A stretch of 26,439 nucleotides of DNA from Planctomycetota bacterium. Lineage in GTDB: Bacteria > Planctomycetota > GCA-002687715 > DRQF01. The DNA lies in NCBI GenBank assembly GCA_036479435.1, contig JAZGFI010000175.1, positions 1-26,439 on the forward strand, written 5' to 3'. The notes under the pieces were generated by a model, which was not told the origin of the DNA, made no database searches, and worked only from the letters and a program-made list of their open reading frames with translations. The position numbers were made by a program, and so were the translations under genes. Of this stretch, positions 1 to 8,360 are shown piece by piece. Positions within the stretch are counted from its first letter, which is position 1, and every line of letters starts with the position of its first letter.

Positions 1-329
1 GGAATCCAGCCCTCCGCCAACCATTGAATGACCTGGGGCAAGATCTCGATGACTTCAACTTTTGAGGTCCGTGAGTCCTTAAGCGCTTCGAGAGCGGTGA
101 AACCGAGTCCCAATCCGCCCACCAAGATCTCAAGATTGTCGTTCCCTTGATGAATCTCGAGGGCGCGACTGGCGAGCGCACGTTCCGACTCCGTGTGATA
201 ACTGCTCATCAAAAAAACATGGTCAAGCGTGACTTCGGTCACGATGATGCCGGGACGCGAGAGCAACTCGCGACGCCGTAAACAAAGCAGGCCAAGGGGC
301 GTCTCTTGGTAGTCGAGCAATTCAATCAT
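1..329 (-). CDS. Spermidine-synthase-like class I SAM-dependent transferase (3' end runs off the window; not in ORF track)
   Basis: Hand translation from ATG at 329: MIELLDYQETPLGLLCLRRRELLSRPGIIVTEVTLDHVFLMSSYHTESERALASRALEIHQGNDNLEILVGGLGLGFTALEALKDSRTSKVEVIEILPQVIQWLAEGWI. It has SAM-binding motif I (LVGGLGLG), an acidic residue at the end of beta-2 (VIE) and the FLMSS...SE..LA signature. The start overlaps the upstream stop (ATGATTGA). Confidence 0.8.
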   Translation of the reverse strand, partial: MIELLDYQETPLGLLCLRRRELLSRPGIIVTEVTLDHVFLMSSYHTESERALASRALEIHQGNDNLEILVGGLGLGFTALEALKDSRTSKVEVIEILPQVIQWLAEGWI

Positions 330-1587
330 GGCGTGCCGCTTCATCCGAGTGACCATCAATCCGACTTCGTAAATACTCGCGCTGCGGGTCGGACCCCGCC
401 AAGCTAGCCGCAAGGCGAAACGCGGCTCGCGACTCATCAGCGTTTCCGGCGAGCGAAAGGAGCTCGGCTCGAACGACATGGTAGCAGAGATAGGGCGCCA
501 GAATTTCCTTCCCTTCCAAGGCCTGAAACTCGTGGAAGCCAGCGGCCGGGCCTCGGGCCATGGCGATCGCGACGCAACGATTCAAGGCCACCACGGGTGA
601 AGAAGTCAAGGCCAGCAGTTGGTCATAGAACTTCAAGATTTGTGGCCAATCGGTCGCCGCGGTGCTGGGTGCCGCCGCGTGACAGGATGCGATTCCCGCC
701 TCCAAATGAAAGCGACTCAGCGCTGGGCTCTTCATGGCTGCGAGTAAATGACGAAAGCCGCGCCGGATGAGGTCTTGGTCCCAGCGTCCGCGATCTTGAT
801 CCGCCAAGAGCTGCAAACGCCTCGCTTCGTCCGATCGCGTCGTCAAGCGAGCGGCGTGAAAGCACATGAGTGCCGCCAAAGCTTCACCCGAAGGACTCGC
901 GATCGCCGGATTCTCCAGCAAGACGCTGAGTAAGCGCATCGCCTCGTCAACAAGGTCGCGGCGTACCAGCTCTCGGCCCTGGTCCGCCACATAGCCAGCG
1001 TTGAACATCAAGTAGATGACGTCGAGAACAGAATCAACCCGCGCCGCCAGATTCGCCGGCGAAGGAAAATCGAAGGGGATCTCCCCTTCCTTCAAGACTC
1101 GCTTGGCCCGAACCAAGCGCTGCTGAATGGTCGCGCGTTCTGCAAACAGGGCGCGCGAGATTTCCCCGGTGCTGAAACCGCCGACAAGCCCTAGCGTCAA
1201 GGCGACTCGAGAGGGACCGGCGAGATTCTCGTTGCAACAGTGAAAGATCATCCGCAGCACGCTGTCCGCGACTTCGTCGGGCAACAGCTCCTCGGATGCC
1301 CGCGCCTCAACATCCAAGTCGGGCAAGAAGTCCATCTGCCGACTCGATCGCCGAATGCGATCAAAGGCCGCGTTCTTCGCCACGGTCCGCAACCAGCCCT
1401 TGGGATTGTTGGGGACACCATGAAAAGGCCAACTGCGAAGGGCCTTTAGGAGAGCCTCTTGCACGACGTCCTCGGCGAGCCCGAGATGTTGCACTCCGAG
1501 CTGCCGAGTCAGTTCAGCCGTGATCTCGGTCGATGCCTGGCGGAAGAGATGGCCCACCAAGTCATCGACACAACCTTTTTGGGGCAT
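322..1587 (-). CDS. ECF RNA polymerase sigma factor, ECF42-like, with C-terminal TPR-containing extension
   Basis: Sigma2 (LAEDVVQEA, WP..G.P.NP.GWL), LRMIF.CC motif, sigma4 (GFSTGEI...QRLVRAK) and a long C-terminal extension (IYLMFN.GY, LADQDR.RWD, TDWPQI..YD.L, SPVVALNR.VA). A DGPF gene lies directly upstream, the typical ECF42 context. Confidence 0.9.
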   Translation of the reverse strand: MPQKGCVDDLVGHLFRQASTEITAELTRQLGVQHLGLAEDVVQEALLKALRSWPFHGVPNNPKGWLRTVAKNAAFDRIRRSSRQMDFLPDLDVEARASEELLPDEVADSVLRMIFHCCNENLAGPSRVALTLGLVGGFSTGEISRALFAERATIQQRLVRAKRVLKEGEIPFDFPSPANLAARVDSVLDVIYLMFNAGYVADQGRELVRRDLVDEAMRLLSVLLENPAIASPSGEALAALMCFHAARLTTRSDEARRLQLLADQDRGRWDQDLIRRGFRHLLAAMKSPALSRFHLEAGIASCHAAAPSTAATDWPQILKFYDQLLALTSSPVVALNRCVAIAMARGPAAGFHEFQALEGKEILAPYLCYHVVRAELLSLAGNADESRAAFRLAASLAGSDPQREYLRSRIDGHSDEAARHD

Positions 1588-1593
1588 CGGGCT

Positions 1594-1947
1594 TTAGCTA
1601 GGACCTTCCATCTCTTCGACGGCGCGAATCTCGATGCTGCCGAACTGAAGATGAGGACAATCCGCAGCCAGCGACTGCGCGGCATCGTAACCTTCAGCTT
1701 CCACTAAGAAGAAACCGCCGAAGACCTCCTTGGCTTCCGCGAAAGGTCCGTCGGTTACCGCCATTTTGCCGTCGGCTCCTCTTAGCAGCCGGCCTTCGCC
1801 GTCACAGAGCTTCTCGCCGCCGAGATGTTGAGCACCGAGTTTCTCGCACCAAGCGCCATAGGCCTGAATGACCTTTTGCATCTCTTCCGGGCTAACGTCG
1901 TCGAATTCTCCGATGCGATCTCGCAGTAAAAGCATGTATCTAGCCAT
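1594..1947 (-). CDS. YciI/DGPF-domain protein
   Basis: 117 aa with M.RYMLL, TDGPFAEAKEVFGGFFLV and GSIEIR. Shine-Dalgarno AAGGAGG at 1954-1960. Confidence 0.9.
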   Translation of the reverse strand: MARYMLLLRDRIGEFDDVSPEEMQKVIQAYGAWCEKLGAQHLGGEKLCDGEGRLLRGADGKMAVTDGPFAEAKEVFGGFFLVEAEGYDAAQSLAADCPHLQFGSIEIRAVEEMEGPS

Positions 1948-2151: not shown

Positions 2152-3339
2152 CTATTGCAGCTCTTTCGCGATGGCGGCTTCGAGTTCATCCGGGGAAAAC
2201 TGGAAGGGCCCCGGCCCTCCGTGATAGGCGATGCGACCATCGCGGCCCACGAGATACAGGCGATCCGGCCAGGCGGAGTAGGCCTTGTTGGCGCTATCCT
2301 TCAGATCATCGACGAGGGCTGGCATCGGCGCGAGAGCGAGCTTGGTCATGCAGACCGCCGCGACGTTGCTGCGCTCATCCAAGTTGACGGGATCTTCAAC
2401 GATCGGCATGCCATCGCCGCCCATGGGGGAACGACTGTCGATGGCATGGGCCTCGCGAATGTAGACCAAGAAAAACTGAACCTCATCGCCGTAGTCTTGC
2501 CACACCTTCTTCAGCCGACCGGCTGAGTTACGAAACGGCGGTCAGGTGTAGCTACCGAAGATGAGGGCAACGGGTTTTTTTCCTCGAAACGATGACAAGG
2601 CAACGTCGCTTCTACTTTCAAGGGACCTGAGCACGAAATCGGGAGCTTGGCTCCCTACTTCGGGGCCGGTCTTAGGGCGCGATGCCCCGGCCCCTCGCCC
2701 TGCCCCGGGTTGCCGGCGCCGCAGAGTCCAGACGCCATCGCCGTCATCTCGCGAGTTGAAGAAACTCACGAGCTCGATCTTCGATGCGCGGCCATCGGAG
2801 TCTTTGTCGACTCCGTCTAAAACGGACTTCCAGGGATCGGTACCACGCATCGTGGGTGACGGCTCGGAAGCAAACTTCTTGCCCTTCGACGCACTGGCGA
2901 ACTCGGCCGCGTCGACTTGTCCATCACCGCCCGTATCCATGCGATCGACGGCTGATTCCAGCTCGCTGAGAGCGAGGCTGTCAGCATCGTCGGCGACTTG
3001 GAAGTAGCGCGCGACCATGCGCTGCGCCATCATCCCGCGCATCATCTCTTTTCGGGATGGGCCCTTCGACTCGAAATCGGCAGCGGTCAAGATGCCGTCG
3101 TTGTCGCGATCGACGCGCTCGAAACTCTTCTGATCGCGTTTGTACTCACTCGCCGTGATACGGCCGTCAGCATCGCCATCGTACTTCTGCTCGAGGTAGG
3201 TCCAAACAGACGCCTGTTCGCCCGAAACATCCATCGGCGTTGCTGCCGCATCCAGGCCACCCGAGGGTGACGACGACGCGCAAGCGGCAAGGCCAAAACA
3301 AGCCACGCTGCAAGCCAGCCCGTAAACAAAATTCTTCAT
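2152..3339 (-). CDS. Lipoprotein with EF-hands and a C-terminal iodothyronine-deiodinase-like thioredoxin-fold domain; selenoprotein (UGA at 2542-2544 = Sec266; 395 aa)
   Basis: The two track ORFs share a frame and are joined across TGA: ...APDF...KPVALIFGSYT*PPFRNSAGRLKKVWQDYGDEVQFFLVYIREAH...DD...AYSAWPDRLYLV...IAYHGGPGPF. These match deiodinase motifs FGSxTUPPF, YIxEAH, P(E/D)RLY and GGPGP. Start ATG 3339 has SD AGGAG and lipobox LAA-C20. EF-hand loops: DGDADGRITASE, DRDNDGILTAAD, DTGGDGQVDAAE, DKDSDGRASKIE. Confidence 0.88.
2497..2541 (-). promoter_or_regulatory. Putative bacterial SECIS element directly 3' of the Sec UGA
   Basis: The mRNA after UGA reads CCGCCGUUUCGUAAC-UCAGCC-GGUC-GGCUGA-AGAAGGUGUGG. 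It forms a perfect 6-bp upper stem (2511-2526) with a 4-nt loop starting GG at +22, and an imperfect lower stem is possible (CGCCGUUU with GAAGGUG). Confidence 0.7.
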
Positions 3340-3509
3340 TGCCTGCTCCTGATCATCGCGGACCCGAGAGTCGATACGATTCTCGATCCTTACCGCCAAC
3401 GAAAAACGCAAATCGCGGCCGCGGACAGCCAGCAATTTACGCCAGGATCAAGGACTGATCGTATCACGGGTGGCGGAAGAGGTCACCTTCCCGGTTGAGG
3501 GAGGAGGCT

Positions 3510-6500
3510 TTACTTTAGGAGTTTCAATTCGGCGGTGGCTGAGGTGTGCTCGGTGAAAGTTGTGACTTTCTCGGCCACGCACTTTAGGAGGAAACTCTTG
3601 GTGGCCGCGAGGTCGCCGCGGGCGCGGCGGAATTGGGCGACGTAGTAGTAAGCTTCGCAGCGGTGTTCGCGATCCTTCGCGGCGAGGCGGATAAAGGCCT
3701 TCTCGCTCAGATCTCCGGCGAAGTAGTTCATGACGGTTCGCGACCACTTATCCAAAGCGAGCGTCGTCTCGGCGCGGTACAGAGCAGCTTTAGTCTGCAC
3801 CGCATCCAGTTGGGTTCCCGTGCGAAGATCGATCAGCAGGCGCCGCATGAGCAAGTAGGGATGTTGATTTCCCTGATCGCTGCGAGCCTGGGCCTCGATG
3901 GCACTTCGGGCTTTTCTCCATTCGCGCCGATTGAAGAAATCATAGGCGCTGCGGGAATAACTCGACGGTTCGGGAAGGTCAGGTCCACGGGCGGATGCGA
4001 CCAAATGAAAGCGCTCTTTCCACGCCGCCTTGATGAGGGCTTTGGGCCACTCAAGACTCTCAAGGATGCGGTGATTCTTCAGCGACTTGTCGGCGGTTGC
4101 GACGGCTAGCCAATTCACGCCGTCATGAAGGAGCAAGTGAGGACGCTGACCAGCTTTGCTTTTCGCATTGAAGAATCCACGTGGAAAAGTCTTCGAAGTC
4201 TCCCATGATTGGATGGGCCGGGTTCGATTGGGGAACTTCTTCATCACAAAGACTTTTTGCGTCGTCGAAATGGGCCACATGGCCGTGAGTTCATAGCCGT
4301 CTTTCGCCTTTTTTTTGATCCAGTCGGAGGGGATCACCGAGTCCGGCTTGTAGGACTGACCGATCTGGTTGCTATTGGCGAACTTTCTCATGACGACGGT
4401 GTGCTCGCTGCCCGACCACCCACCGGTTTCCAAGACGTATTTCTCGTCCCAACGCTTTTTGATCCAAGCGGCGGGAAAAGCCTTGGACACTTCAGTTCGC
4501 TGTTGAAACCCCTTCGCTTGGGTATCGAACACGGCCCAACGGTCAGCGCCGTGACTGATGTAGTTGACGTAGTAGCCCTCTTTTTGATTCCTGTCGTCGA
4601 GGGTCTTAAGGGGCTTCGGCCAAGACGGCCGAAGGATCCAACGCACCGAGCGATACTGCCCCTGGTGCATGATGACGAACCACTTGTCGAGCCTTTTGAG
4701 AAGAGCCTTTTGGTTCGGGAACAGAGCGATGGACTGGCGGGCGTCGATATAAGCCGCAGTCTTCGATTTTAACTTGTCATGGCAGTCGCTTCGCAAGGCA
4801 AGTGCCCGGCTGTTGTAGGGCTCACGCTTTAGGATGTGATCAAGATCAGCTCTTGCGTCGCGGTAGTTCTTTTTCTCTATGTACTGAAGCGCGCGCTGTA
4901 ACCTGATGCCGGGTTGATCGTAGTCGGCGATGGCAGCCGTCAAATCGCGGATCTTGCCCGCTGAAAACTGGGGGCCGAGGCGTCTGAGCGCTCCTTCCAA
5001 ACGAGCGATCCCCAGCAAACGACGGATCTCGGCTCGCTGCTTTGCCGGTAAGGCCTTGTCTTTGGAGAGAGCATTGGCCTGCGAAATCGCGGCGCCAATG
5101 ACGCCGGAGGCTCCGCCGGGGTCGGCAAGCGCCGCCTTGATATGCCAGATTTGTCCCTCGAGTGATAGGCTCGGCACACCAAGGTATCCGCGGCGTGCCT
5201 CGGCGTAATCGCCGTCGAGATGCTTCGCTCGAGAAAAGCGCAAGAGGTTATTCACTAACTCCGCAGACGGCGGCGCCCCCAATGTGACCACAATCTCAAT
5301 GACTTCAGACCCGAGGTTTGGCGCAGAAAACCAAGGCATAGGGCGCTTCTTAGATCTTCGTGAGCCGCCAAACTTAAGCGCCTGCAGGTAATCGCGGTAG
5401 GCGCCTGCAGCGTCCTGGATCGCCATTTTCGAGACGGCGCGGTTGAGCCAGGCCTGAGAAAACTTGCCGTCATCAGCAATAGCGCGGTCAAAAAAGACGA
5501 TTGCTTCGCGATGGCGTCCCTGTTTGGCCTCCGCATAGCCAATGTTGTTATTGACGATGGCGGTAGTCAACCCACTCGTAACGGCGCTCGCTCGCTTGGC
5601 GAGATCGCTGTCGGCGAGCGAATCGCCCGCGACCGCTTTGAGAGCGATGAGGTTGGACAAGGCCGCCGCGTCTTTCGCATCCTGCCTCAAGGCATCTTCA
5701 AGATCCATTTGGACCAAAGCAGAGGCTGGAACCAAGCGGGTGCTTCCTTGCCGATAGGCCTGGGAGGCCTCCAACCACCATTTCACCACGGCTCGATTCG
5801 AATAAGTGGTCGCATCCTGACCCTTGTCATCGTCGAGAACAAAAGTCAGGTCTTGGTAGGCCTCTTCCATGTTCTCAAAGATGCTCAACAGCGCTCCGCG
5901 CATGCGGCGGGCCCTAATGGACTTGGAGTCGATCTCTAACGCACGATTGAGCGACTCGAGAGCCTTGACTACGTCCATCTCAGCAAGTTGTTTGGCGGCG
6001 CGGTCTGCGCAAACTGCTGCCGTCTCGCGAAAAGTCTCGATACTCTTGCGGCGAACGTTCCCCGCACGGTCCGTCGCCACGAGTTCGAATTTGTTCACTC
6101 CCGGGACCAAGCTAAGCGTCCGAGTGAATCGGCCGAAGATATCGACGGTAACCGGTTTGCCCGCAAGTTCCACCGTCTCAAGGTTGGTGTCCATCACGCC
6201 GCAAGCCACAGACAATGAAGTCTCGATCAGGGTCTTGGGAAAGGCGTCTACGAAGATGTCCGGTTGCTTGGTGTCGACGACGAAAGCCCGTTCGATCGTC
6301 GTAGATTTTTTGGTCTCATCCGTGGCCGTGGCCTTAATCCGATAAGAACCGTCGTCGAGGGCGACGACGCTATTCCAAGGAATCCCCAAGGTATCACCAG
6401 CCGAATTCATGGCGTTGACATTGCGGTTCGTGGGACCTGTGATGCTCAAACTCACTCGGCAAGTGGTCGCGTCCTGGTAGCTTCCAATAATCGAAACCGG

Positions 6501-8360
6501 ATTCTCACGCACATGGGCGCCCTGCGCTGGCACGGCAATGGCCATCACCGGCGGGCGGGAGTCCGATCGGAGATTCAGTTCTATCTCCGCCGCGGAATCG
6601 CCGAAAGCGATGAGGCGAATGGAAATCTGGTGGCCCCCTTCGGGCAGAACGAGCTCAGAGCGAAACTGCCCGCCGCTAATCTTGACCTGGTCTCCGTTGA
6701 CCTCGAGCTGGCTTTGGTCCAAACCGAAGTCATAAAGACGATCAAGGTCGACACTGCCGAGGATCGAGGCGCGACCGTCGGGAAGGATCGCGCCGGACTT
6801 GGGGCGCTCTATTTTCAGAGCCGCGCCGAGGGCCTGAGTGATGGCACTCGCGATCTCGCGGCTCAATTCTTTACCGCCGGCGTCCTCATCGATAGACAGG
6901 GCCTCTCGGCAAAGTTCATAGGCGCGACCGAGATTGCCATCTTCGAGTTGCCGTTGTCCCAAGACCAGCAGCGCTGGTCTTAACTCGGCATCGAGGCCGG
7001 GGTAGTCCGGTGATTCCTTCTTCACGCGAAGAAGCGTCGTCACGCCGCGGTCAAGGGTGGCAGGACGACGAATGTCGGCCACGCCTTCGTCGAAGCGTGC
7101 CCGATACTCGCCAACATTAGAGCCAATCCACCCCAGTTTCCACGCCGCGAATCCACTCCCGGCGGCGATCAAAAACAGAAATGCAAACAGCACGAGGGCC
7201 GTTCGACCCCGCCGTACTGGAGCGTGCCGCGCCCCGCTCGGGACCACGGTACGCGACATTCTTGTTGCCGCGTTCGAATCCGAAGGAGCTCGCGGGGCCA
7301 TCGTCGGCGGAATGGTCGAACTAAGGGGCGGCACGATCGTTCCAGGGATGCTCTGAAGATCGCTATTGCTCTGCACGGCATCGCGAATGCGTTGCATCGT
7401 CGCCGTGGGCACTATGGCGGTCGTCCGGTCGGGACGGTCACCGGCCATCTGAACCCCGCGAGCCAACTGCTCTTCGCCTTTGCGATTGCGATAAGGCGCC
7501 AAGAGTGAAATGACTTCGACGCCGCTTTGAGGGCGCTTGCTTGGGTTCTTGTCAATGGCGCGACGGTAGAAGTCGATGACGCCATCTTCGAGGTCCGGGC
7601 GTTCGAGGGCAAGATCCGGGAGCGGGTCGTCACAAACGCGGCGCATGACATCGACCAAGGAACCACTGGGCACCGCGTGATGCCCCGTCAACATGTAGTA
7701 GAGCGTCAAGGCCAGCGAGTAGACATCGGCCGCCGGTGTCAGGCTTTTCGCATCCGCGTACTGTTCCGGTGGCATGTAGTTGGGCGTGCCCATCATCAAG
7801 CCGCTGCGCGTCTCAAGACCGTCCAAGCTCTCTGCGACTTTTGCCAAGCCCAAATCCGCGACTTTGATCCGACCGTGGTCGGCAATCATGATGTTGTCGG
7901 GTTTAATGTCGCGGTGGACGATGCCCATCTTGTGGGCTTGCGCTAATCCACGAGCCGCTTCATAGATGATCGTGACCGCGGCGCTGCTGGGCTCGATATG
8001 GCCCACGCGATTCACGCGCTCGCGGATCGTCTCACCCGGCACGAACTCCATGACGAGGTAGTGGATGCCGCGCGACTCGTGGACGTCGAAAACGCGTACC
8101 AGGTTCTCACTGTCAATGGAAGCGGCGACCGTAGCCTCGCGGCGAAAGCGTTGAACGAACTCCTCATTTTCCTGGGCTAGCCCGGGTCTCAAGCACTTGA
8201 CCGCGACGTCAATATCCAGCTTAAGGTGACGGCCGCGGTAAACGGTTCCCATCCCCCCCTGCCCGAGTTTCGCCGTCAAGACGACGGGGTAAAGGACCTT
8301 GAAGCCCTCCACCTCCCAGGCGTTTTGAAGCAGTGGGTCCGATCTAAAATCGCCGCTCAT
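3510..8360 (-). CDS. Receptor-like Hanks-type Ser/Thr kinase (kinase - TM - TPR - Ig-like repeats - TPRs - Trp/Lys repeat domain - NlpI-like C-terminus), 1616 aa
   Basis: GQGGMGTV, VAVK, HRDIKPDN, DLG, GTPNYMPPEQ and DVYSL motifs. A Pro/Thr linker precedes the TM helix (RRGRTALVLFAFLFLIAAG). Beta-sandwich repeats (L.EG.H.I.I, L.DGSY.I.ATATD, L.PG.N.F.L.ATDRAGN) and TPR patterns (A...RA, AWLNRA) follow. Confidence 0.92.
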   Translation of the reverse strand: MSGDFRSDPLLQNAWEVEGFKVLYPVVLTAKLGQGGMGTVYRGRHLKLDIDVAVKCLRPGLAQENEEFVQRFRREATVAASIDSENLVRVFDVHESRGIHYLVMEFVPGETIRERVNRVGHIEPSSAAVTIIYEAARGLAQAHKMGIVHRDIKPDNIMIADHGRIKVADLGLAKVAESLDGLETRSGLMMGTPNYMPPEQYADAKSLTPAADVYSLALTLYYMLTGHHAVPSGSLVDVMRRVCDDPLPDLALERPDLEDGVIDFYRRAIDKNPSKRPQSGVEVISLLAPYRNRKGEEQLARGVQMAGDRPDRTTAIVPTATMQRIRDAVQSNSDLQSIPGTIVPPLSSTIPPTMAPRAPSDSNAATRMSRTVVPSGARHAPVRRGRTALVLFAFLFLIAAGSGFAAWKLGWIGSNVGEYRARFDEGVADIRRPATLDRGVTTLLRVKKESPDYPGLDAELRPALLVLGQRQLEDGNLGRAYELCREALSIDEDAGGKELSREIASAITQALGAALKIERPKSGAILPDGRASILGSVDLDRLYDFGLDQSQLEVNGDQVKISGGQFRSELVLPEGGHQISIRLIAFGDSAAEIELNLRSDSRPPVMAIAVPAQGAHVRENPVSIIGSYQDATTCRVSLSITGPTNRNVNAMNSAGDTLGIPWNSVVALDDGSYRIKATATDETKKSTTIERAFVVDTKQPDIFVDAFPKTLIETSLSVACGVMDTNLETVELAGKPVTVDIFGRFTRTLSLVPGVNKFELVATDRAGNVRRKSIETFRETAAVCADRAAKQLAEMDVVKALESLNRALEIDSKSIRARRMRGALLSIFENMEEAYQDLTFVLDDDKGQDATTYSNRAVVKWWLEASQAYRQGSTRLVPASALVQMDLEDALRQDAKDAAALSNLIALKAVAGDSLADSDLAKRASAVTSGLTTAIVNNNIGYAEAKQGRHREAIVFFDRAIADDGKFSQAWLNRAVSKMAIQDAAGAYRDYLQALKFGGSRRSKKRPMPWFSAPNLGSEVIEIVVTLGAPPSAELVNNLLRFSRAKHLDGDYAEARRGYLGVPSLSLEGQIWHIKAALADPGGASGVIGAAISQANALSKDKALPAKQRAEIRRLLGIARLEGALRRLGPQFSAGKIRDLTAAIADYDQPGIRLQRALQYIEKKNYRDARADLDHILKREPYNSRALALRSDCHDKLKSKTAAYIDARQSIALFPNQKALLKRLDKWFVIMHQGQYRSVRWILRPSWPKPLKTLDDRNQKEGYYVNYISHGADRWAVFDTQAKGFQQRTEVSKAFPAAWIKKRWDEKYVLETGGWSGSEHTVVMRKFANSNQIGQSYKPDSVIPSDWIKKKAKDGYELTAMWPISTTQKVFVMKKFPNRTRPIQSWETSKTFPRGFFNAKSKAGQRPHLLLHDGVNWLAVATADKSLKNHRILESLEWPKALIKAAWKERFHLVASARGPDLPEPSSYSRSAYDFFNRREWRKARSAIEAQARSDQGNQHPYLLMRRLLIDLRTGTQLDAVQTKAALYRAETTLALDKWSRTVMNYFAGDLSEKAFIRLAAKDREHRCEAYYYVAQFRRARGDLAATKSFLLKCVAEKVTTFTEHTSATAELKLLK

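Follow-up and report, generated by a model that had tools for sequence, protein, structure and literature searches.

A planctomycete gene predicted to encode a lipid-anchored, deiodinase-like selenoprotein with an EF-hand module

The gene and its reading frame

The DNA analysed (the window) is a stretch of 26,439 nucleotides from a Planctomycetota bacterium (assembly GCA_036479435.1, contig JAZGFI010000175.1), and the gene considered here lies on its minus strand, running from an ATG at 3339 to a stop codon at 2154..2152. It forms a single open frame of 395 codons plus stop if an in-frame TGA at 2544..2542 (codon 266) is read as selenocysteine (Sec, U), in which case the translation has 395 residues with Sec at position 266 (U266); a search of the organism's own genome likewise showed one TGA inside an open frame at this locus. 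From the N-terminus the parts are a signal peptide with a lipobox, a Ser/Pro/Gly stretch, four EF-hand loops together with two degenerate acidic motifs, an Arg/Gly linker and a deiodinase-like domain (Table 1). The reading that we favour, and consider moderately probable, is that this one gene gives rise to a full-length Sec product which would be exported, lipid-anchored at C20 and likely to bind Ca2+, and which carries a deiodinase-like thioredoxin-fold domain.

The public gene call at this locus (P0002, 230 amino acids, window 2542-3234, minus strand) starts at Met36 and ends at the UGA after GSYT, and so includes neither the signal peptide nor the catalytic domain. Two alternative starts, an in-frame TTG at 3435 and the Met36 used in P0002, both lose the N-terminus that is conserved in relatives.

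Table 1. Features of the gene, with positions in the window
Feature	Position	Strand	Basis or remark
Whole gene	2152..3339	minus	395 codons plus stop, in-frame TGA at codon 266
Shine-Dalgarno-like AGGAG, 6 nucleotides before ATG 3339	3346..3350	minus	direct sequence reading
Predicted signal peptidase II signal peptide, residues 1-19, lipobox L17-A18-A19-C20	3280..3339	minus	PS51257-type rule
EF-hand loop 1 (EF1), DGDADGRITASE, residues 54-65	3145..3180	minus	strict pattern passed; in relatives D54 72/73, D58 70/73, E65 73/74
EF-hand loop 2 (EF2), DRDNDGILTAAD, residues 77-88, Asp at loop position 12	3076..3111	minus	strict pattern passed
Degenerate acidic stretch DDADSLALSE, residues 117-126	2962..2991	minus	part of family motif YFQxDDD...LxLxEL
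EF-hand loop 3 (EF3), DTGGDGQVDAAE, residues 135-146, Gly at ligand position 3	2902..2937	minus	loose pattern
EF-hand loop 4 (EF4), DKDSDGRASKIE, residues 178-189, Ala at position 8	2773..2808	minus	loose pattern
DDGDG, residues 198-202	2734..2748	minus	part of subfamily motif RDDGDGVW; D198 43/64, W204 41/82
Arg/Gly-rich linker, residues 205-227	2659..2727	minus	length varies among relatives; predicted local distance difference test (pLDDT) <50 at residues 209-218
Deiodinase-like thioredoxin-fold domain, residues 228-392	2164..2658	minus	PF00837
TGA codon 266, predicted Sec in FGSYT-U-PPFR	2542..2544	minus	aligns with catalytic Sec of Dio2/Dio3
Selenocysteine insertion sequence (SECIS)-like hairpin UCAGCC-GGUC-GGCUGA, nucleotides 19-34 from U of UGA	2511..2526	minus	covariation across loci
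C330, candidate resolving Cys	2350..2352	minus	Cys in 64/72 relatives

Decoding of the in-frame UGA

The prediction that the in-frame UGA is read as Sec is well supported. A pattern scan taking one genome per species yielded at least 592 relatives, and in the best 80 loci, which come from different species, the codon after GSYT is TGA in 79 and TGC in one. Among relatives aligned with the window protein the position of U266 is Cys in 70/71, as it is in the crystallized mutants of mouse Dio3 and Dio2, where this is the position of the catalytic Sec. The genome, which is 92% complete, encodes a tRNA-Sec (67 bits, above the cut-off) beside SelA, and SelB as well, and its single gene matching PF00837 (T4_deiodinase) is the window gene.

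Downstream of the UGA lies a putative SECIS. Pairing in this hairpin was counted in 48 EF-type sequences, namely the window and the 47 of the 79 Sec loci that have at least two EF loops: 91.7% of the cells are paired, 4 of the 6 pairs are changed on both sides (13 cells) and none of 500 shuffles attains these values; when the hairpin was slid along as a control, 7-49% of cells were paired. The GGUC loop is found in 36/48 of these sequences. The count was confined to the EF-type sequences because EF-less relatives have a different hairpin, about 5 nucleotides nearer to the UGA and with a 3-nucleotide loop; with an ungapped stack of all 80 Sec loci as input, RNAalifold found no consensus. At the protein level the hairpin (window 2511-2529) constrains the Sec forms to S-A-G-R-L five residues after Sec, and the Cys forms vary there.

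If the TGA were instead a true stop or a disabling mutation, the EF-hand protein and a downstream open reading frame (ORF) of 117 residues would be separate or dead, and the public call of a 230-residue EF-hand protein ending at GSYT is what such a view would expect. We give it practically no credence, however, in view of the recurrence of TGA at the catalytic codon in different species, the in-frame conservation that continues past it, the covariation of the hairpin and the presence of the Sec machinery in the genome.

The deiodinase-like domain

The C-terminal domain matches PF00837 with 92 bits against a cut-off of 27 (E 4.6e-26), and sequence matches were also obtained to Dio3 (4tr3, E 8.9e-17) and Dio2 (9h48, E 5.7e-16). 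The model of the full-length protein (pLDDT 85.8, predicted template modelling score (pTM) 0.72) has its best fold matches by VIA in Dio2 (Z 21.9, 163 residues aligned, root mean square deviation (rmsd) 1.8) and Dio3 (Z 20.5). Around the active site FGSYT-U266-PPF aligns with FGSCT-C-PPF of 4tr3 and FGSAT-C-PPF of 9h48, and the Dio-type insertion (residues 294-319) shows one 2-residue gap relative to Dio3. In the available text of PMC11592359 the proton relay of Dio2 comprises Ser127, Thr129, Tyr157, Glu160, His162 and His182, and five of these six appear to be matched in the window protein, by S263, T265, Y293, E296 and H298. E296 and H298 are each conserved in 75/75 relatives and R270 in 71/71. 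C330 is the sole Cys of the mature protein apart from C20, the predicted site of lipidation, and is a candidate for the resolving partner of U266. In four full-length relatives (P0011, P0019, P0123 and P0158) the Sec/Cys position is occupied by Ser or Leu; these may be non-catalytic copies or miscalls.

The linker that joins this domain to the N-terminal part (LRRRQPGAGRGAGASRPKTG, residues 205-224) had been noticed when the sequence was first read by itself; it is indeed there, ahead of the thioredoxin-fold domain, but lies just beyond the segment to which it had been assigned, at 2727..2659.

Predicted lipoprotein signal and export

The sequence-only reading had also proposed a lipobox, LAA-C20 followed by ASSSPSGG, and this is found on the minus strand as described. 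It agrees with a PROSITE PS51257-type rule in that K2 falls within the first 7 residues, the h-region is uncharged and Cys is at position 20; the h-region is hydrophobic (mean Kyte-Doolittle value 1.93 over residues 4-19). Agreement with the same rule was seen for 65/97 stored truncated forms (P0002 included). In the alignment the C20 column is Cys in 54/67 relatives and the remainder have ordinary signal peptides. Both enzymes of lipoprotein maturation, Lgt (PF01790, 248 bits) and signal peptidase II, LspA (PF01252, 114 bits), are encoded in the genome. We predict export of the product and its anchoring by a lipid at C20. In a sister clade of Cys-type proteins (P0003-P0010, P0017, P0021, P0122 and P0127) a Cys/Pro-rich stretch, CC..CC..C, follows directly after the lipobox and may be a metal or disulfide site; the Sec clade has none.

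The EF-hand module

All four EF-hand loops that had been described as canonical-looking are present, but only EF1 and EF2 are strictly canonical by a PS00018-type pattern, the single mismatch being at position 3 in EF3 and at position 8 in EF4. The loop ligands at positions 1, 3, 5, 9 and 12 and the Gly at position 6 are all present in EF1 and EF2, and EF3 is without its position-3 ligand. In an alignment of 121 relatives, conservation of the ligands at loop positions 1, 5 and 12 is 76-99%. For EF2 the individual counts are D77 76/80, D81 71/79, G82 70/78 and D88 70/74; for EF3 they are D135 78/97, D139 64/79, G140 70/80 and E146 79/104, with D, N or S at position 137 in 74/80; and for EF4 they are D178 66/74, D180 56/77, G183 57/85 and E189 67/82. 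When residues 21-210 were shuffled 20000 times, four loose matches arose once and two strict matches never, which excludes chance as the origin of the loops. Four Pfam families score above their cut-offs: EF-hand_1 (42.9 versus 25.4), EF-hand_6 (39.2 versus 25), EF-hand_5 (34.8 versus 25.9) and EF-hand_7 (31.1 versus 30).

The two degenerate acidic motifs are also as first described. In the model DDADSLALSE (117-126) comes before a strand (121-123) and the entering helix of EF3, and DDGDG (198-202) is followed by a strand at 203-205. Modelled alone, the N-terminal module (N-module) reaches a pLDDT of 91.3; its residues ~101-204, which contain EF3 and EF4, superpose on the EF-hand pairs of polcalcin, calaxin and troponin C with Z values of 5-8.1, and Foldseek returned calmodulins at E about 1e-3 with a low template modelling score. 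Ca2+ binding through the four EF-hand loops is considered likely.

Two other candidates for the identity of the module were rejected as generic EF-hand likeness: lanmodulin (NF053806), which scored 23.5 bits against a cut-off of 135 over residues 52-92 only, and XopAW, which was far below its cut-off. Pro at loop position 2, which we take to be a feature of lanmodulin, is not present in the window protein.

Distribution and constancy of the fusion

The EF-hand/deiodinase-like layout is not a one-off but a family trait that is common in related bacteria, as judged from the sequences of relatives. Of the 249 other stored proteins, 96 stop at a GSYT-type motif, all but one of them (95) with two or more EF loops. 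Cys at the site, again alongside EF loops, is seen in 38 more. Where the entries ending in GSYT are named (e.g. P0013, P0022 and P0059) the name is 'EF-hand domain-containing protein'. Some part of the protein is matched in 153 of the 301 genomes sampled from the phylum, counting that of the window; about 20 genomes of this sample besides the window's match it from end to end, in every case with exactly one TGA. EF-hand and T4_deiodinase domains are combined in 14 of 24 longer relatives, P0098 being one of the 14; no DsbD-like or AhpD-like fusion was found among the 24 (E up to 1e-6). In other relatives tetratricopeptide repeat (TPR) or 3-keto-disaccharide-hydrolase-like domains replace the EF module. 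The order is reversed in P0094 and P0098, with the deiodinase-like domain first and the EF-hands C-terminal, and the stored proteins begin just after the UGA; P0129, P0179 and P0238 have two deiodinase-like stretches per protein.

It had further been suggested that the gene could yield two products depending on selenium supply, such that under scarcity termination at UGA266 would release a functional stand-alone EF-hand lipoprotein. In bacteria UGA termination competes with Sec insertion and is possible for any bacterial selenoprotein gene, and the truncated chain would retain the signal peptide and all four EF loops. The distribution of the module nevertheless speaks against two selected products. 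A search with the N-module alone against a word-indexed collection gave 3 proteins and was uninformative, and a profile search of 401 genomes of the phylum was used instead: all 30 of the 30 best places (E <=8e-38, own genome included) run in frame into FGS[YWF]T-TGA, with no N-module lacking the catalytic domain among them. Likewise, among the 249 stored proteins there is no N-module homologue standing alone by design, as the EF-only entries end in GSYT, GSYS or GSAT with the exception of the aberrant P0217. Cys-type relatives, in which there is no stop codon at the site, keep the EF module and its ligands. Moreover, judging from the model, the truncation would fall within strand beta-1 of the thioredoxin fold, and the shortened chain, with ~38 residues (228-265) of an incomplete domain, would probably be degraded. 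We therefore regard the two-product proposal as very unlikely and the full-length Sec protein as the relevant product.

Proposed function and its alternatives

The other part of the sequence-only reading, a membrane-tethered extracytoplasmic selenoenzyme with an EF-hand array, holds up as a prediction: the signal peptide, the EF ligands and the fusion itself are conserved, and Lgt and LspA are encoded. Once exported by the Sec pathway (the general secretory route) and processed by both Lgt and signal peptidase II, the protein would be located on a membrane, facing the periplasm or the cell surface, where its EF module would be loaded with Ca2+ most of the time. We suggest that this module serves mainly for Ca2+-dependent folding or positioning of the catalytic domain; such a structural role would make activity sensitive to ethylene glycol tetraacetic acid (EGTA) in vitro and does not require a physiological Ca2+ switch. 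U266 would be the nucleophile of a redox cycle of the Dio/peroxiredoxin type, making a reductive attack on a halogenated or oxidized extracytoplasmic substrate, and C330 would resolve the oxidized selenium as a selenenylsulfide that is then reduced by a thiol reductant.

The regulation of the enzyme by Ca2+, which had also been put forward, is only an inference. In its full form this would make the EF module a true sensor, Ca2+ occupancy turning the Sec-redox domain on or off, and we consider it doubtful. The fusion of EF-hands to Dio-like domains recurs in several layouts, the reverse order included, and the pTM of the two-domain model hints at a fixed arrangement; on the other hand the linker appears flexible and varies in length. 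Because Ca2+ levels outside the cytoplasm usually exceed by a wide margin the affinity that canonical EF-hands typically show, the EF sites would be saturated there. Real analogues of such a switch are known. Calredoxin of Chlamydomonas (CRX, PDB 5e37) combines four EF-hands with a thioredoxin-fold redox domain and is Ca2+-dependent, according to the available text of PMC4911631. A weak phmmer match to 5e37 (E 6.4e-4) extends across the EF and thioredoxin parts with 0 stretches passing alone, but the structural match of the N-module is poor (VIA Z 5.9, rmsd 13.5). Calredoxin also differs in having a classical thioredoxin domain, a location in the chloroplast stroma and neither Sec nor a lipid anchor, and the likeness is one of analogy, not membership. 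In selenoprotein N (SEPN1/SELENON), as described in the part of PMC7474598 available to us, a membrane-bound protein of the endoplasmic reticulum lumen, an EF-hand links Ca2+ to redox activity. It shares with the window protein the combination of a membrane-bound selenoprotein outside the cytosol and an EF-hand, and differs in its unrelated catalytic domain, its single EF-hand and its eukaryotic origin; the two are set side by side from descriptions and as an analogy only.

A weaker alternative than the Ca2+ switch, and one that we think quite improbable, is that the EF array acts like a dockerin, as a Ca2+-dependent binding domain that tethers the enzyme to a protein partner or envelope polymer and does not itself act on the catalytic domain. 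A precomputed Dockerin_1 (PF00404) match exists in the close relatives P0012 and P0060, the TPR or 3-keto-disaccharide-hydrolase-like domains that stand in for the EF module elsewhere are typical binding modules, and the spacing of EF1 and EF2 is unusually close. The dockerin lead is however confined to those two relatives, the window protein itself having no PF00404 match, and no conserved partner gene lies nearby in the 12 loci scanned.

A number of observations weigh against the favoured reading of an exported, likely Ca2+-binding and deiodinase-like Sec enzyme and should be set against the evidence above. As regards decoding, the 63 nucleotides after the UGA fold no better than shuffled sequences (z -0.53), so the support for the hairpin comes from the comparison across loci, and Rfam gave no SECIS or other family match after the UGA at the gathering threshold or at E up to 10. 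As regards catalysis, the peroxiredoxin AhpE (Z 19.1) is nearly level with the deiodinases in fold comparison, which leaves the chemistry ambiguous; the sixth relay residue, Dio2 His182 as numbered in the available text of PMC11592359, corresponds to Pro317. As regards the N-terminal part, the lipobox and EF-loop patterns are hand-written rules, two loops of the window protein are sub-canonical (EF3 with Gly at position 3, EF4 with Ala at position 8), EF1 and EF2 start 23 residues apart and as a pair have no clear structural match, and Z values of at most 8.1 for the EF-hand superposition are middling, so that the case for EF-hands is made mainly from sequence. Nor do the surroundings help: a Pfam scan of 58 ORFs at 12 of the 24 loci with four EF loops (the other 12 loci, with 61 ORFs, being left out) found no shared neighbour gene and none pointing to a reductant or substrate. 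To our knowledge there is no experiment for any bacterial deiodinase-like protein.

Relation to known proteins

Bacterial deiodinase-like selenoproteins were described in 2005 (Zhang, Fomenko and Gladyshev, PMC1088965) and are listed in a 2026 review (PMC13188914); in the available text of both they have no known function and are thought to be redox proteins. They share with the window gene PF00837, Sec or Cys at the same site and a bacterial SECIS hairpin with G in a small apical loop. Unlike the window gene, they are presented in the available parts of these two accounts with no mention of EF-hands, a lipoprotein signal or Planctomycetota; in PMC13188914 the terms 'EF-hand', 'lipoprotein', 'signal peptide' and 'Planctomycet' have 0 occurrences. 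A full-text literature search, the scope of which excluded subscription journals and supplements, found no paper on the EF-hand fusion. The catalytic family has thus been known since 2005, and the EF-hand fusion is an under-annotated type of family member.

The animal deiodinases Dio1-3 (4tr3 and 9h48) provide the best match in both sequence and fold and share the motifs FGS-x-T-U-PPF and Y-I-x-E-A-H, the Dio-type insertion and, as predicted here, membrane anchoring. The window protein differs from them in having a predicted lipid anchor in place of the N-terminal helix, an additional EF-hand module and Pro in place of Dio2 His182, and R270 and C330 are specific to its family. Thyroid hormones are not expected as substrates of the window protein.

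The NCBIfam model NF038285 (deiodinase_rel, 347 positions) has in common with it an N-terminal part followed by a Dio-like domain, and members passing this model include proteins with EF-hands (P0031, P0133, P0136 and P0198 by their loops, P0104 by precomputed Pfam EF-hand hits). The window protein itself, at 221.9 bits, falls short of the cut-off of 250, its best stretch covering only the C-terminal domain (profile positions 173-341). NF038285 models a sister group, the passing members checked being Cys forms, unlike the Sec form of the window. Strong fold matches were also obtained to ResA and the pneumococcal Etrx lipoproteins (2yp6/4hqz), which share a lipid- or membrane-anchored thioredoxin fold on the outer face of the membrane but have CxxC dithiol sites and no Sec, EF module or Dio-type insertion.

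A bolder interpretation is that these proteins form an overlooked large clade of lipid-anchored extracytoplasmic selenoenzymes in which a four-EF-hand module gates a deiodinase-like Sec centre. We think this unlikely; if true, these enzymes would be the bacterial equivalent of calredoxin and selenoprotein N and would link redox or dehalogenating chemistry to Ca2+ in the envelope. Gating aside, a large planctomycete branch with predicted export, a predicted lipid anchor and a conserved EF-hand module that is always attached offers handles for biochemistry, such as activity with Ca2+ versus EGTA and the U266/C330 pair. Annotation is affected as well. In public gene calls these genes are broken off at the UGA and their first half is named an 'EF-hand domain-containing protein', with the result that the Planctomycetota selenoproteome would be under-counted and that a class of supposed EF-hand proteins would be an artefact.

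Gene neighbourhood

Directly upstream, on the same strand, is a gene for a Ser/Thr protein kinase of 1616 residues that includes TPR, Ig-like, glucodextranase-B-like and DUF7477 parts (window 3510-8360, minus). Downstream, again on the same strand, a YCII-domain gene is followed by one for a sigma factor of the extracytoplasmic function (ECF) type with DUF6596 (window 322-1947, minus). In the closest genome relative (L010, 51% identity) SelA and SelB are encoded directly downstream on the other strand (L010:4176-7617), a single case.

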